32,000 bases of DNA, from NCBI GenBank assembly GCA_030614005.1, contig JAUWKS010000020.1, positions 1-32,000 of the forward strand, given 5' to 3'. The notes beneath the pieces are model-generated. The model was given only the letters and a program-made list of their open reading frames with translations. It ran no database searches and was not told the origin of the DNA. Origin of the DNA: Candidatus Heimdallarchaeota archaeon (GTDB lineage Archaea > Asgardarchaeota > Heimdallarchaeia > JABLTI01). The translations under genes were made by a program, and so were the position numbers. Shown here piece after piece: positions 24,106-30,051 of this stretch. Positions within the stretch are counted from its first letter, which is position 1, and the number at the start of each line of letters is the position of its first letter.

Positions 24106-25974
24106 TTATTCGTCGTCTCTTTCTACCCATGAGAACTTATTTTGTAATGTTTTCGAGTAATAGTTTCTCCAATCATAGTCTACTTCTTTTCCCCAAGCAT
24201 GATATATTCTTGGATCAATATACGACTTCAAGCTCGTTCCTAAATTCCACACTTTAGTTTTCTTAGAAATTCGTTCTTGTGTTTCGATTTTCTTATATGC
24301 TTCTTTTGCTTTGTAGACACGTTCCTTAGCTGTGCCTAAGCTATTTTTTCCTCTAGCGATTTGACTTTGAGCAATTTCTATGCGCTTTTTCGCAGTGCCA
24401 ACTCGTTTCCTCTGAGTTTGTACTTTCTTCTTTTGTTTCGCACAAGCTTTAGTGAGTTTCACTTTTTCTTTTGAATCTTGTTCGTTGTTAGAAAGATCTT
24501 CTAGCTCAAGAAAATCACCTTTTGTTTGTTCGAGAATTTTTTGCTGCGCTTTTTCTTGTTTTCGTCTTTCCTTTAGATTCTTCTTAAGTTCTTCAAGACG
24601 TTCTTCTCTACCACTTTGGTTTAGTTTTGCTTTTTCAATGCGCTCACTTGATTTAATCTTTCGTTCTCTAAATCGTTGAATCCTATTTTCCCAATTCTTA
24701 GGTGCTTGTTTCATATGAGTACACACAACTGCTGCCTCGCGATTAGCCATCGTAGCAGCTTCTTTCTTCTTGTACTCTGGGTCATCTGCTGAAGTGTCAG
24801 ATTCTTCTAAATGAGCTGAGACGATATTTGTTGCATGAAACGTTCTAAATACTTTTGCCGTAAGATCAGGCACAATATTACTGAAGAAATCATTAACCTG
24901 AGTACTACCAATTTTCGAGAAAATCTGAGGTTTATCCTTTCCACTCTTTTCTGCTTCATCTATTAAAAATTGCAATTCTTTTATAATATATAATGGGAAA
25001 GTAGTATCTTTATTCCATTCCACAGAATCTTTTCCAAGAAAATTGAAATTTACCTCCTCACCATCAATTGTAACATGTTCAGGTCTTAAAGTGGTAGCAC
25101 CTACGGTATCTGCTTCATCTTCATCCTTTTCGTCACCAACTCTCAGAATTAGTTGATCAATGATGTAACAGGCAAGAGCAATTTTTCTTGTCCGAGGATT
25201 ATCACTTTTAATACCTTTATCAATTTCTAAACGAATTTTCTCTAATTGTCCCGCAACTTTCCTAGCCTTGTTGAATTTTTCGATTTCTCTATCTTGTTTT
25301 ATGGGTGTATTATCTGATAGCCAGACGTATTTTGTTTTTTTGGAAAGTTTATCTTCCCATTTCGCAACCCAAAGACATTCTGGTTCCCAAACGATTTCTT
25401 TCCATTTCTCTTTCCAATTCTCTTTCTTCTGTTCTTCAGATAACTCACTTATATTGAGAACAATATCTTTTGAAGTAGGACCTTCTTTCCATTTACCTCG
25501 CATTGGATGTTCTCCTCGACCCATAAATATACTACTAGGTTCAGCAGTCCAAGCTCCAATTTCCACTTTCATTTCGTCTAACAAGGTTGTGCCATAATAT
25601 TCTTTTAGCTCTTCTCGAACAACCTTTCGGTCTTCTCTTGCTTGCTTTTTTTGTTCTTTAGTCAAACTTTCTTTCTCAGCTCTTACTGATTCAATGTGTT
25701 CAATTACCTCTGAAAAATCAATGTCATCATCTGTGAGATTGTCATATCCTAGTTTTCTACTGAAATCGGCAAAGAAATTTTTACAAAAAATAGTATCATC
25801 TACATAGACTGTAGAAAGTTTTCTAACCCAAGCAATAGCCATTTGTTCTTGCATTGGATCGAGTTCTATCCTAGTATCTTTTACTCCAATTGTTAATCCA
25901 AGATACTTAATTTCTGAAATCATAATTCCATTGTGAGTTAGTTTTTTCATTTCTACCAAGGCACTGAACCTCAT
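24106..25974 (-). CDS. top1: DNA topoisomerase IB (eukaryote-type)
   Basis: EP.SIFMGRGEHP.RGKWK, LRVGDEKD, ADTVGATTLR.EH, FLGKDS, TAKVFRTF, ANR..A..C.H and LGTSLKSY (catalytic Tyr) followed by IDPRI. The true start may be MKKLTHNG at 25950. Confidence 0.96.
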   Translation of the reverse strand: MRFSALVEMKKLTHNGIMISEIKYLGLTIGVKDTRIELDPMQEQMAIAWVRKLSTVYVDDTIFCKNFFADFSRKLGYDNLTDDDIDFSEVIEHIESVRAEKESLTKEQKKQAREDRKVVREELKEYYGTTLLDEMKVEIGAWTAEPSSIFMGRGEHPMRGKWKEGPTSKDIVLNISELSEEQKKENWKEKWKEIVWEPECLWVAKWEDKLSKKTKYVWLSDNTPIKQDREIEKFNKARKVAGQLEKIRLEIDKGIKSDNPRTRKIALACYIIDQLILRVGDEKDEDEADTVGATTLRPEHVTIDGEEVNFNFLGKDSVEWNKDTTFPLYIIKELQFLIDEAEKSGKDKPQIFSKIGSTQVNDFFSNIVPDLTAKVFRTFHATNIVSAHLEESDTSADDPEYKKKEAATMANREAAVVCTHMKQAPKNWENRIQRFRERKIKSSERIEKAKLNQSGREERLEELKKNLKERRKQEKAQQKILEQTKGDFLELEDLSNNEQDSKEKVKLTKACAKQKKKVQTQRKRVGTAKKRIEIAQSQIARGKNSLGTAKERVYKAKEAYKKIETQERISKKTKVWNLGTSLKSYIDPRIYHAWGKEVDYDWRNYYSKTLQNKFSWVERDDE

Positions 25975-26055: not shown

Positions 26056-26760
26056 TTATCTTACTTCACAAACTTCAAAATTTGCTTTAATTTTTTCACA
26101 AGCATCTTCAAGAATACCTAAGCGAAATGGTTGAAGCTTTTCAAATTCCTTATCTAAACACTTCAAGGGTCTGAATTGTTGAATATACAATCGCTTTGCT
26201 CCTTTGATCATTTCCGCAATAATTGGAATATCATGTTCAGGATCGATTATTGTAGGAACAACTGTTGTTCTAAATTCATAATCAATATCAGAATCAATTA
26301 TGATTTTAATTGATTTCAGAATATTTTTGATGTTCACTTTCTTGCCAGCAGCGAGGTGATATTTCTCTGGAATTGCTTTAACATCCATAGCAATATAATC
26401 AAGCAATTTGTCATCAATAAGTTTCTGAATTACATCAGGATGATTACCATTGGTGTCAATTTTTGTTTTTAACCCCATTCCTTTGATAATTTTCAGAAAA
26501 TCAGGCAATCGCTTACTGAGAGAAGGTTCTCCTCCAGTAATTGACACTCCATCCAGCCATTTGCTCTTTGATCTCTTTTCAATTTCTGCAAGAATTTCAT
26601 TCGTATCAAAACTTTTTACAGCATCTAAAGGAATTAAATCCGGATTGTGACAGAATGGACATCGAAAATCACATCCTGCAAGAAAGATACTATCTACAAT
26701 TAGACCTGACCACTCAATAATTGAACCCTGTTTATACCCCTTAATTTCAAGTCCTACCAA
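26056..26760 (-). CDS. nrdG: Anaerobic ribonucleotide reductase activating enzyme (radical SAM)
   Basis: FLAGCDFRCPFCHNP (CxxxCxxC), GVSITGGEP, KIDTNG, MDVKA, YEFRTT, QQFRP; operon context. Confidence 0.93.
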   Translation of the reverse strand: MVGLEIKGYKQGSIIEWSGLIVDSIFLAGCDFRCPFCHNPDLIPLDAVKSFDTNEILAEIEKRSKSKWLDGVSITGGEPSLSKRLPDFLKIIKGMGLKTKIDTNGNHPDVIQKLIDDKLLDYIAMDVKAIPEKYHLAAGKKVNIKNILKSIKIIIDSDIDYEFRTTVVPTIIDPEHDIPIIAEMIKGAKRLYIQQFRPLKCLDKEFEKLQPFRLGILEDACEKIKANFEVCEVR

Positions 26761-26779: not shown

Positions 26780-27040
26780 TTATTTTGCTTGAAGTTCTTT
26801 TTGAACTTGCTCTATTGGAGGTACTTCTCCTCTCCAAGCTTTAACTTCACTATCGGATTCATCGACAATAATCAAAGAAGGTGTTGAAAGAACATCAAAA
26901 TAAACTGATTCTGATAAACCTTCTTCATCATCTAAATTGAACCACTCAACAACAGTACCTTTTTCTTCAAGTTTTTTTGCCATAGCTTTTGCTGGAGGGC
27001 AATTTGGACAATCTGCTTTTGTAAATACTTTTAATTTCAT
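26780..27040 (-). CDS. Glutaredoxin/NrdH-like thioredoxin-fold protein
   Basis: KLKVFTKADCPNCPPAK (CxxC), V.STPSLII with the cis-Pro motif. Confidence 0.9.
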   Translation of the reverse strand: MKLKVFTKADCPNCPPAKAMAKKLEEKGTVVEWFNLDDEEGLSESVYFDVLSTPSLIIVDESDSEVKAWRGEVPPIEQVQKELQAK

Positions 27041-27152: not shown

Positions 27153-27386
27153 CTACACGTCATCAGACCAATAATTGCCTTTTTGTCTTCTCTTTAACTC
27201 TGATTTCTTAGAGTTGTTCCAGTTATCAATTATACTAAAGTATCCTACTACCCTGCTAATACCGTAAACATTGTCGCTGTTACAGTATGGGCAATTAGGA
27301 GTAGAACACGTTTCACCTGCATGTTCTATATTTTGTTCTGTTGTTACTTCGGTTATTTTTGTTATAGTTGTTTTTGCCTGTTCCAT
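27153..27386 (-). CDS. Stand-alone glycyl-radical domain of class III RNR (NrdD C-terminal part)
   Basis: CPYCNSDNVYGISRVVGYFS..NWN.SKKSELK.R matches the NrdD CPxC...RVxGY C-terminus. It has its own GAGG RBS. Confidence 0.9.
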   Translation of the reverse strand: MEQAKTTITKITEVTTEQNIEHAGETCSTPNCPYCNSDNVYGISRVVGYFSIIDNWNNSKKSELKRRQKGNYWSDDV

Positions 27387-27454
27387 ACAATTTTTCCTCG
27401 ATAGTTTATTTTTCTTTTTACGCCATTTTTCGATTTGTTTTCTTTTTCAGCCCA

Positions 27455-29875
27455 CTATTGACCTTGTACAGAAGAACTTGTTGATCTGCCAAAGCCCCTA
27501 CTAACTTGTCCACAATCTCTACAGACTGTAAACTCTGGTGAAAACACTATCTGTGCGCTCTGGGTATTGTCCCATGTTTTCTTAACCAGATTCATTATTG
27601 ATTCCGCCGAGGGTTTTTGCTCGCCGACGAATATGTGTGTGATAGAACCGCTTTCAATGAGGGTATTGAATTTCCCTTGTTTTGAAATTCTATCAATAAT
27701 ATCAATAGGTGCATCAGCTGCGAAGTGTGCACTATTGGTATAGTAAATTGATCCTTCGTCAATATCACCCTTGACATAATGAATACTGTCAGGATATTCC
27801 TTAAGATCAGTTCTCGCGAATTTAAAAGGAGCACTTTCTCCTGGAGTTTCTTCAAGAGTAACAGTTAGACCATGTAGTTTTTGGAGAGCTTTTGCTTTTA
27901 GGTTCATTCCAGCAATAATCTTTAGGCCTAGTTTGTAGGCTTTTTCGCTGTCATGTTGTTCTTCATCAATAAGATATTGAACACATTCATTTAATCCTAT
28001 AACGCCTATAATGTAAGTTGCTTTTTCCAAATCAACATAAGGTCTACCATCTTCAGCAATCATACCAATTTGCCAAAGGGTGCCATTTTCTTGAGTCATG
28101 AGTTGAGTAATGAATTCCTTCTTCTCAAGATGAGCTTCCATTGCTAAATCCATTGCTCGTCTAATTTCTTCAATTGTTTTCTTTACGTTACCTTTTCCGG
28201 CTCGATACGCTGCTTGTGGTAAATTAATGCTCACATTTTGGAACCCACAATAACGCATGCTTTCAGGATGTTCAATCATATACATGTCAGTGATTGTTGT
28301 TTTTAATCGACAGCACATTGAAAGATTGATTTCATCGCGATCAAATATGAAATAAGTTGAACCATTTTCAGAGGATATTTTACATGCCAGTTCCAACAAT
28401 TTATACTGTTCAGGATCATCAAAGGAACTTTGATCAATATGTAAATCAAATTTTGGAAATGGGAAGACTTTCGATTCAGAATCTCCTTCTAACCAAACTT
28501 CCATTAATGCTTTAGCAAATAATTGTGTTTCTTTTTCATACTCGCCATAATTTTTTCCAGTATATTTACCACCAGGGCCAATTGCGGGTATGTTTTTGAG
28601 ATATCTTGGAATGCCTAAATGAATATTAAAATCTACAAAAAGGGTTTGTCCCCCTCTTGAGAACGCATTTTGACTGCAAGAATAAATCAATCGCTGTGCT
28701 TCTTGTTTTATTTGTTTATATGGGACACCAACAAAATAAGGGGCATAAAAGATATTCAGATAAGCTAATCCTAAAGCACCGGCATAATATGCTTGCATTG
28801 AAGCTAAGAAGGTATTAAGATGTCCAGTAAGAGTATCTGCATGATTTGCTGGGTTTGAAACGGTTGAGAGATTTAACAAGTTCAATCCATATTTTTTGAT
28901 ATATTCTAAGCTATGAGCAGAGCAATACACCCTGACTGGGAAACCCAAATCATGCAGGTAAATCATTCCTTTTCTGTGTGCATTTGCTACTTCCTTGGAG
29001 AAGAGCTCTTGAAGAGCAAATTTTTTCAATATTGCTTCTGCAATAGCTAAGTTCACCGCCTCTGGATTATTGGCGACTACGTTACTATTTTCTTTGCTTT
29101 TTGAAAGTATAAGTTGTTTAAGATCGAATGTGGGTATACCAATAGTTTTCTGTTGAACCAATTTAGTATTATACCCTCGAGTAAATAATTCATTATCAAC
29201 CAAACTTCTGATAAAATCAACTGATATTACACCTATGCCAGATGCAAATATCTTTCTTTCAACTTCTATGGAAACAGAATCAGCATCTGCACGATTTAAT
29301 CCTGCTTCTTTAACCAAAGCGGCAGTAATTTTTGTTCGGTCCCAACCAGAAATTTCCTCTCGAGTATCAGCTGATACCATTAACAGAAGTTCAGTAGAAT
29401 CACGACTTTTCACATCTACTTCCTTTACTACTTTTAATTTCTCCAACTCACGTTCAAATGAAGCGATATCTGTGAATCGTCTATAAACTGAAGCATAACG
29501 AATATAAGCAACTTCATCGAGTCCTCGGAGTTTTTCCATAACTAATTCTCCTACGACACTAGCTTCAATTTCCAATTCTTCATTTTTTCTTAATTCACTT
29601 TCAATTTCATCTATAACGTCTTCAATTTCCTCAGAAGAAATAGGTCTTTTTTCGCAGGCTTTTACGATACCTTTTTTGACTTTCTCACGATCAAATGGTT
29701 CCCTACGTTTATCCTTCTTTACAATAGTAAGCTTCACTTGTTCTATTCGTTCATAAGTTGAAAATCGCTTTTTACATTGAAGACATTCTCTTCTTCGTCT
29801 ATTTGCTTTCATGTCTTCTGACGCTCGTTTATCAACGACTCGAGTATTTGGCGATTGACAGTAAGGGCATTTCAT
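27455..29875 (-). CDS. nrdD: NrdR-NrdD fusion: NrdR repressor (aa 1-147), second ATP cone, class III RNR barrel; lacks the glycyl-radical domain
   Basis: MKCPYC...RRRRECLQCKKRFSTYE...VAYIRYASVY (NrdR); LHDL...YC, SRGGQTLF, FPFP, SMCCRL, IGVIGLNE, ETPGES, YYTNS, ESGSITH (NrdD). Ends after CRDCG with no RxxGY. Confidence 0.95.
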   Translation of the reverse strand: MKCPYCQSPNTRVVDKRASEDMKANRRRRECLQCKKRFSTYERIEQVKLTIVKKDKRREPFDREKVKKGIVKACEKRPISSEEIEDVIDEIESELRKNEELEIEASVVGELVMEKLRGLDEVAYIRYASVYRRFTDIASFERELEKLKVVKEVDVKSRDSTELLLMVSADTREEISGWDRTKITAALVKEAGLNRADADSVSIEVERKIFASGIGVISVDFIRSLVDNELFTRGYNTKLVQQKTIGIPTFDLKQLILSKSKENSNVVANNPEAVNLAIAEAILKKFALQELFSKEVANAHRKGMIYLHDLGFPVRVYCSAHSLEYIKKYGLNLLNLSTVSNPANHADTLTGHLNTFLASMQAYYAGALGLAYLNIFYAPYFVGVPYKQIKQEAQRLIYSCSQNAFSRGGQTLFVDFNIHLGIPRYLKNIPAIGPGGKYTGKNYGEYEKETQLFAKALMEVWLEGDSESKVFPFPKFDLHIDQSSFDDPEQYKLLELACKISSENGSTYFIFDRDEINLSMCCRLKTTITDMYMIEHPESMRYCGFQNVSINLPQAAYRAGKGNVKKTIEEIRRAMDLAMEAHLEKKEFITQLMTQENGTLWQIGMIAEDGRPYVDLEKATYIIGVIGLNECVQYLIDEEQHDSEKAYKLGLKIIAGMNLKAKALQKLHGLTVTLEETPGESAPFKFARTDLKEYPDSIHYVKGDIDEGSIYYTNSAHFAADAPIDIIDRISKQGKFNTLIESGSITHIFVGEQKPSAESIMNLVKKTWDNTQSAQIVFSPEFTVCRDCGQVSRGFGRSTSSSVQGQ

Positions 29876-30004: not shown

Positions 30005-30020
30005 CCACCACATCTGGTGG
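30005..30020. promoter_or_regulatory. NrdR box (gene-proximal)
   Basis: CCACCACATCTGGTGG fits the 16-bp palindromic consensus acaCwAtATaTwGtgt at the key C4, A6, A8, T9, T11 and G13 positions. Confidence 0.8.
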
Positions 30021-30035
30021 TTTGTGGTCCCTCAA

Positions 30036-30051
30036 ACACAACATATTGTAT
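30036..30051. promoter_or_regulatory. NrdR box (promoter-proximal)
   Basis: ACACAACATATTGTAT, 14/16 match to the consensus and exactly 31 bp from the other box. Confidence 0.85.

Follow-up and report, generated by a model that had tools for sequence, protein, structure and literature searches.

The question raised by this locus is how an anaerobic, class III ribonucleotide reductase (RNR) can be built when its catalytic barrel and the glycine that is to carry its radical are encoded by separate genes. The locus lies in a 32,000-nucleotide (nt) stretch of DNA from Candidatus Heimdallarchaeota archaeon, analysed whole and here called the window (positions 1 to 32,000 of contig JAUWKS010000020.1, assembly GCA_030614005.1), in which nrdD is divided between two adjacent open reading frames (ORFs) on the minus strand. 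As set out below, the two products very probably constitute a naturally two-subunit class III RNR, with a zinc ribbon completed across the subunit interface and the radical glycine supplied in trans.

Organisation of the divided nrdD gene

27455 to 29875, minus strand: large subunit, 806 amino acids (aa), with NRDD and TIGR00244 profile matches
27387 to 27454, minus strand: intergenic spacer, 68 nt, with the Shine-Dalgarno sequence GAGGA at 27399 to 27395
27153 to 27386, minus strand: small radical subunit, 77 aa, with C-terminal NRDD and TIGR02487 matches

All parts of a class III RNR are present but spread over two chains, encoded in an operon with the order body, small subunit, thioredoxin-like gene and NrdG. 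The 806-aa ORF, referred to here as the body, carries successively an NrdR module (aa 1 to 147), a second ATP cone, the NrdD alpha/beta barrel and the first Cys pair of the zinc site, C785/C788 (codons 27523 to 27512), and it terminates 18 residues past this pair with ...FSPEFTVCRDCGQVSRGFGRSTSSSVQGQ, followed by TAG at 27457 to 27455. The finger loop reads SMCCRL at residues 519 to 524 and contains an MCCR motif whose C521 and C522 (codons 28315 to 28310), together with R523, are invariant among ten aligned bodies (alignment A1). The body matches Pfam NRDD (PF13597) over profile positions 1 to 517 of 562 (E 2.6e-113) and TIGR02487 over positions 1 to 537 of 581 (346.9 bits, cut-off 326), while neither its sequence nor the Pfam and TIGRFAM profiles revealed a glycyl-radical loop of the form RVxGY, which is located instead on the 77-aa ORF.

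The latter reads MEQAK...CPYCNSDNVYGISRVVGYFS...NWNNSKKSELKRRQKGNYW... and starts with a variable N-terminal tail (aa 1 to 30) that is probably disordered. There follow the second Cys pair, C32/C35 (codons 27293 to 27282), the radical loop SRVVGY, with Gly48 encoded at 27245 to 27243, and a C-terminal part with an NWNxSKxxE...RQxGxY tail. Its profile matches (509 to 561 of 562 for NRDD, 537 to 580 of 581 for TIGR02487) are complementary to those of the large ORF, and the two ORFs are therefore pieces of a single domain, the cut separating the first Cys pair of the zinc ribbon from the second. An alignment of 24 small proteins (alignment A2) has 16 invariant columns, namely C32, C35, S37, S44, R45, V47, G48, S51, I53, W56, N57, K60, E63, R67, G70 and Y72. 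In the spacer, GAGGA lies 8 nt ahead of the ATG of the small gene and a TGA, at 27449 to 27447, occurs in the small ORF's frame.

A first-pass annotation of the window had assigned the radical loop and the second Cys pair to a separate small protein, a division now borne out both by the complementary profile matches and by nine relatives, and its positions for the TAG, the TGA, the Gly48 codon, the 77-aa ORF and the 68-nt spacer with a ribosome-binding site were all confirmed. The novel terminal tails that it described on both halves were also found: the body ends with a conserved G.VSRG[FY]GR followed by a variable stretch, and the small protein has its N-tail.

Conservation of the split and selection on both parts

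One objection is that nrdD has been broken by mutation or misassembly and is decaying or non-functional. Metagenome-assembled genomes (MAGs) do hold such breaks, and the nrdD gene of one relative (G172, locus L052) looks frameshifted. Nevertheless, the gene is split in all 11 genomes of the family that were searched, as well as in many other lineages. Each of the ten further genomes of this genus has small stand-alone matches of 74 to 104 codons, as does one genome of a sister genus. The layout is kept in nine relatives from two genera, none of which has the continuous ORF that the first-pass annotation had named as potential counter-evidence. Over these nine loci the stop codon after the body is TAG, TAA or TGA, the small gene is in frame 0, +1 or +2 relative to the body, and the spacer ranges from 46 to 80 nt, whereas a GAGG motif and an ATG are present in every locus; this combination of variable and constant features is incompatible with misassembly, with a gene only recently inactivated, and with programmed frameshifting or stop-codon read-through. 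Moreover, Logan contigs from runs of two studies span the junction without indels; one of these runs may be from the sample that yielded the window. At the level of contigs, the check for an assembly error advised earlier came out in favour of the split.

Selection has acted on both parts. For the body the median pairwise dN/dS is 0.054, rising to 0.12 over the nine conserved residues with which its new tail begins, and for the small protein encoded in the operon it is 0.075 in the core and 0.43 in the N-tail, all of these being rough values, derived from short alignments with dS near saturation (about 1 to 2), and taken only as a sign of constraint. By this measure the body and the small protein are both under purifying selection. 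A search with PF02867 yielded no class I or class II RNR in the genome, which is 90% complete and contains one NrdD body. The split class III enzyme is the only RNR found there and, to judge from this gene content, should be functional. The split is thus real, conserved and widespread, and a decaying gene or an artefact is barely credible as an explanation.

It is equally hard to believe that a single polypeptide is restored from the two ORFs, be it by frameshifting, read-through of the stop codon, RNA splicing (for example of a bulge-helix-bulge intron) or a split intein. The adjacency of the ORFs on one strand would suit recoding, but the frame offset, stop codon and spacer length all vary among the relatives while the Shine-Dalgarno motif and ATG are conserved, and the TGA blocks the small frame. 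That a single frameshift cannot join the halves, as had been stated from the TGA in the window, therefore holds for the relatives too. Reading the TAG as an amino acid can be discarded: translation would continue in a different frame from that of the small ORF and meet a TAA, and relatives use TAA or TGA. Folding of the junction RNA (27280 to 27530) gave no stable or unusual structure (z = -0.65) and nothing resembling a bulge-helix-bulge, which argues against joining at the RNA level as well as against recoding. For a split intein there is the Asn-Cys immediately before the second Cys pair of the window's small protein, which resembles the end of a C-intein. This Asn is not conserved, however, relatives having F, T or R, and the tails are far too short, with 2 to 5 residues before the Cys pair in some relatives; a Pfam search of the window's ORFs detected no intein domain.

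A predicted inter-subunit zinc site

Residues 250 to 806 of the body (alignment A1) were modelled together with the small protein (alignment A2) and zinc, in three runs with three controls. The runs gave ipSAE values of 0.89, 0.90 and 0.89, against 0.00 for the best control, with at least 66% of the contacts in agreement and a pLDDT of at least 65 for the partner; in the calibration of the method, the mark applied is reached by 58 of 80 solved complexes and by 2 of 110 mismatched pairs. In the predicted complex C785/C788 meet C32/C35, as a shared Cys4 site proposed in the first-pass annotation would demand, and small-protein residues 45 to 50 (RVVGYF) contact body residues 470 to 473 and the CC finger loop at 522 to 523. 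The conserved new tail of the body (790 to 795) is also at the modelled interface. A putative inter-subunit Cys4 zinc site is consistent with this model and with the presence, on either chain, of a Cys pair that is invariant.

The mechanism that we propose is as follows. Two of the four zinc ligands would come from the 806-aa protein, along with the barrel, the Cys finger loop and the allosteric cones, and the 77-aa protein would contribute the two other ligands together with the glycine that NrdG would turn into a radical. Docking of the small protein, at the place occupied by the C-terminal glycyl-radical domain in a one-piece NrdD, would complete the zinc ribbon over the subunit interface and set Gly48 beside Cys521/522, and electrons would probably be supplied by the neighbouring thioredoxin-like protein. 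That the subunits assemble and share a zinc site, and that NrdG activates the enzyme for catalysis, is predicted from sequence and modelling. Since the body lacks a radical domain, the 77-aa operon copy would be a regular and obligatory subunit of the enzyme and not a spare.

Several points weigh against the two-subunit interpretation. The case is built on sequence and a structural model, and the favourable complex prediction may echo the solved structures of one-piece NrdD, in which event it would report that the parts fit as they do in NrdD and not that they bind. In addition, the 90% completeness of the genome leaves some room for a second RNR, and the body tree considered below, with its deep nodes open, fixes neither the direction nor the number of transfers.

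Glycyl-radical enzymes swing the radical loop out of the barrel for access by the activase, and oxygen destroys them by cutting the chain at the radical. With the loop on a separate 8-kDa protein, both activase access and oxygen damage become directly testable.

Relationship to known systems

One-piece NrdD enzymes with their NrdG, including those of Thermotoga maritima (4COI/4U3E), phage T4 (1H78) and Prevotella copri (8P23), were used for comparison. They share with the split enzyme the NRDD barrel, a motif of the SCCR type (here MCCR), the four cysteines of a zinc ribbon (here a predicted one), the RVxGY radical loop, a neighbouring NrdG and an ATP cone. They differ in that the chain is here cut between the Cys pairs, which places the radical glycine and two predicted zinc ligands on a second protein, with new tails where one-piece relatives have about 10 residues between the pairs, and in that a complete NrdR is fused N-terminally.

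Divided RNR chains have precedents in other classes. In Aeromonas phage Aeh1 the class Ia NrdA is reportedly split by a homing endonuclease. A split class II enzyme, NrdJa/NrdJb, has been described for Pseudomonas aeruginosa (PMC4520616). These two systems resemble the present one in that an RNR catalytic chain is encoded by two genes whose products must assemble, but they belong to other classes, are cut at other positions, and are not known to part the radical-bearing element from the barrel. New features of the present case are its Asgard host, a break that falls within the zinc ribbon, the fusion to NrdR, and a single body accompanied by three paralogous radical subunits, all of them conserved. 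A search of full-text literature, with subscription journals and RNRdb outside its coverage, found no paper on a split NrdD, an NrdR-NrdD fusion or a spare part for an enzyme other than pyruvate formate-lyase (PFL).

The other natural comparison is with the autonomous glycyl-radical cofactors of PFL, GrcA/YfiD of E. coli and Y06I of phage T4, to which the first-pass annotation had likened the small protein. Like GrcA/YfiD, it is a small free-standing protein with a glycyl-radical loop and a variable N-tail, and it is presumably activated by the activase of the parent enzyme. In contrast to GrcA/YfiD, the small proteins match only Pfam NRDD and not PF01228 (Gly_radical), and the one described here carries half of a predicted zinc site. 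Furthermore, GrcA rescues a full-length enzyme that has a radical domain of its own, whereas the sole NrdD body in this genome has none, and for the operon-linked copy the likeness had to be given up. The analogy suits better two unlinked paralogues of the small protein, which are considered after the distribution of the split.

Distribution and origin of the split

Beyond what the first-pass annotation had claimed, the split proved to be a feature of a widespread clade that includes DPANN-labelled genomes, candidate-phyla bacteria and others. In a sample of 300 genomes of the phylum, small strong matches are confined to this Asgard family, with one to three per family genome and two or three in all but one genome (64% complete). 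In the other Asgard families of the sample the matches lie within frames of about 700 to 790 codons, consistent with one-piece NrdD. These one-piece Asgard enzymes are distant from the body (28% identity); their Cys pairs are some 10 residues apart, and a thioredoxin-like domain is fused to their C-terminus.

In four of these one-piece loci, from other families of the same class (L017 to L020, from G032, G035, G023 and G021), the fused thioredoxin-like domain carries SCPNC or SCPKC. The first Cys pair is C..H in three of them. For two of the four the open frame is exceptionally long (up to 2466 codons) and includes LAGLIDADG-like sequence that probably represents inteins. Two other genomes, G227 and G188, have extra C-terminal NrdD fragments of 67 to 147 codons in addition to a full-length NrdD; these fragments (L050, 1718 to 1918 and 5550 to 5990; L051, 2296 to 2559) contain both Cys pairs and the radical loop, but no ATG. 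They may have been left behind by duplication or gene conversion, and it is also possible that they are expressed.

The closest bodies, at 60 to 70% identity, are from MAGs labelled DPANN (Aenigmarchaeota, Woesearchaeota, Micrarchaeota) or simply 'bacterium' or 'archaeon'. Among the 120 closest body clusters, formed at 90% identity, at least 88 are of the split type and broken in the same way: 72 terminate right past the first Cys pair, with the S.G[YF].R ending seen here, and 16 have a longer tail. Of these 16, P0305 was looked up, and downstream of it lie in turn a 70-aa NRDD gene, a gene for thioredoxin and nrdG. The other 32 clusters are one-piece. The operon, consisting of the body (with or without NrdR), the small gene, Thioredoxin_3 and NrdG, has the same layout in an Aenigmarchaeota-labelled MAG and in bacterial contigs where it adjoins ftsA-ftsZ, and they have in common the break point ...C.DC..VS.GY.R followed by a stop. 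The same operon occurs in MAGs labelled Saccharibacteria or Berkelbacteria. Of the best 80 loci in species-representative genomes, about 41 were linked pairs of the split type and 16 were small genes in unlinked positions; 20 were genes of the one-piece type, which came from anammox planctomycetes, Omnitrophota and Clostridia.

In a FastTree phylogeny of the body, calculated with the zinc and radical part left out and with its deep nodes open, one-piece forms make up one clade (support 99) and split forms fill the remainder, except that two one-piece sequences, P0319 and P0314, are nested among the latter. The label split or one-piece changes 3 times over this tree, and none of 500 shuffles did as well. 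P0319, at 60% identity to the present enzyme, has both halves in one chain, joined by a linker of about 22 aa, from which it follows that the two parts belong to one enzyme; its sequence suggests either a re-fusion or a pre-fission intermediate. Tentatively, the split may have arisen once, within one NrdD lineage of the SCCR/NrdDh-like type, and spread by transfer, and acquisition by transfer is the most likely source of the enzyme in this Asgard family. As the only RNR found in the genome, and present in many MAGs labelled DPANN or candidate phyla radiation, the split enzyme is likely essential for these lineages. A third way of dividing the parts is seen in the metagenomic protein P0122 (189 aa), in which a small glycyl-radical module is combined with a C-terminal thioredoxin-like domain (GCSMCG).

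These genes are easily overlooked. In current annotations the names given to split bodies and small ORFs are 'anaerobic ribonucleoside-triphosphate reductase' or 'hypothetical protein', and length filters such as the 400 to 1100 residues used in one RNR phylogeny (PMC9531940) drop the small subunits.

Unlinked small-subunit genes

A further result that goes beyond the first-pass annotation is that this genome (G000) contains, for its one body, three small-subunit genes: the operon copy and two unlinked ones, which are listed here with the synteny groups of all copies in the family.

G000:C103: unlinked small gene, 80-aa ORF, beside an HD-domain gene
G000:C110: unlinked small gene, ORF of about 74 aa, beside two roadblock/LC7 genes
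Synteny group A: in the operon, 10 genomes
Synteny group B: roadblock locus, 12 genomes, in both genera
Synteny group C1: C103-type locus, this genome and its nearest relative
Synteny group C2: separate locus, 7 other genomes

All the small-subunit copies retain all 16 invariant residues, and the paralogues have low core dN/dS values (0.11 for group B, 0.07 for group C2) and faster N-tails (0.4 to 0.6). Since every conserved residue is kept, the unlinked paralogues likely dock on the same body, and the C103 and C110 genes most likely encode alternative radical subunits for it. In group C2 (L067 to L070 and L074) there is no ATG, GTG or TTG ahead of the Cys pair, apart from one GTG (Val) 4 to 5 codons upstream; a non-canonical start is possible, in view of an ATA codon that follows a GAGGG motif and a conserved TTTATATAG box.

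If the small proteins, and chiefly the two unlinked paralogues, serve as GrcA-like replacements, then an 8-kDa subunit cut by oxygen at its radical glycine would leave and a fresh one, possibly pre-activated by NrdG, would dock, so that the 93-kDa body need not be remade. This is a rather doubtful reading. In its favour are the ratio of two to three small genes per family genome to the one body in this genome, and the synteny and constraint of the paralogues in groups B, C2 and C1. The two PFL-like enzymes of the genome carry PF01228 radical domains of their own, the sole PF01228 matches there, and have no need of these small proteins. Among non-Asgard genomes with the split operon, moreover, three or four contain unlinked extra copies as well, and a June 2026 review records spare-part proteins for formate lyases only, leaving their existence for other glycyl-radical enzymes undetermined. 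On the other hand the operon copy cannot be a spare for a body without its own radical domain, neither exchange nor oxygen induction nor separate regulation is indicated by the present data, and the paralogues could instead be condition-specific isoforms. Cheap replacement of the oxygen-cleavable part, as envisaged in the first-pass annotation, accordingly stands as a plausible consequence of the split and not as its demonstrated function.

A more elaborate form of this idea, which is likewise doubtful, is that the three small proteins make up a pool of exchangeable radical cartridges that can be charged by NrdG while free, those cleaved by oxygen being swapped and the unlinked paralogues being made under different conditions, such as exposure to oxygen. 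One body with three radical subunits is a concrete candidate for spare parts beyond the formate lyases, and such a pool, if it exists, would be the first glycyl-radical spare-part system outside PFL, in an Asgard lineage thought to meet oxygen.

It is distinctly improbable that the unlinked paralogues have a different job altogether, as decoys or regulators of NrdG or the body, or as remnants of viral genes. Small stand-alone NrdD-type genes do occur on viral contigs, 20 of the 21 loci (L145 to L165) lacking a body within 3 kb, and the paralogues have divergent, rapidly evolving N-tails. Against this, they keep the radical Gly, the Cys pair and all family-invariant residues, and they occupy syntenic positions on the chromosome with ordinary host genes (roadblock/LC7, HD-domain gene) as neighbours. 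Should the cartridge pool prove real, the stand-alone viral copies would hint at viruses supplying cartridges.

The open frames of the viral NrdD-type glycyl-radical ORFs range from 51 to 151 codons and several lack the Cys pair. The two PFL-like glycyl-radical enzymes mentioned above are encoded at G000:C75:14169-16466 and G000:C1:18924-20837 (792 and 842 codons, respectively), each adjoining a radical-SAM activase-like gene.

Operon partners and flanking sequences

26780 to 27040, minus strand: thioredoxin-like protein, 86 aa, CPNC motif, Pfam Thioredoxin_3 (E 2.8e-6)
26056 to 26760, minus strand: NrdG activase (radical SAM), 234 aa, TIGR02495 NrdG2 (192.9 bits, cut-off 131)

The thioredoxin-like gene occupies the same position in all split operons examined, and its product is a candidate reductant of the enzyme that probably delivers the electrons. 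The SCCR finger-loop motif is that of T. maritima NrdD, of subclass NrdDh (PMC4493059), and its MCCR form in the body, taken together with the thioredoxin-like protein in the operon, suggests that the reductant is a protein rather than formate. The nrdG gene, two genes downstream of the body, gives the sole above-cut-off NrdG hit in the genome.

The N-terminal 147 residues of the body match TIGR00244 over all 147 positions (196.2 bits, cut-off 124.65) and NrdR chains in the PDB with an E value of 1e-39 and, on the basis of these matches, are a complete NrdR, with zinc ribbon and ATP cone. This in-frame fusion of NrdR to the reductase (29435 to 29875, minus strand) is kept in all genomes of the family and in many DPANN-labelled relatives, and some bacterial relatives have a separate nrdR immediately upstream rather than a fusion. 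The leader upstream of the body (30005 to 30051) contains two palindromes, AACATATACAATATGTT and ACCACCAGATGTGGTGGT. Directly downstream of nrdG, at 24106 to 25974 on the minus strand, is a gene for a eukaryote-type DNA topoisomerase IB with the Pfam domains Topoisom_I_N, Topoisom_I and Topo_C_assoc, and this synteny is also kept in relatives.

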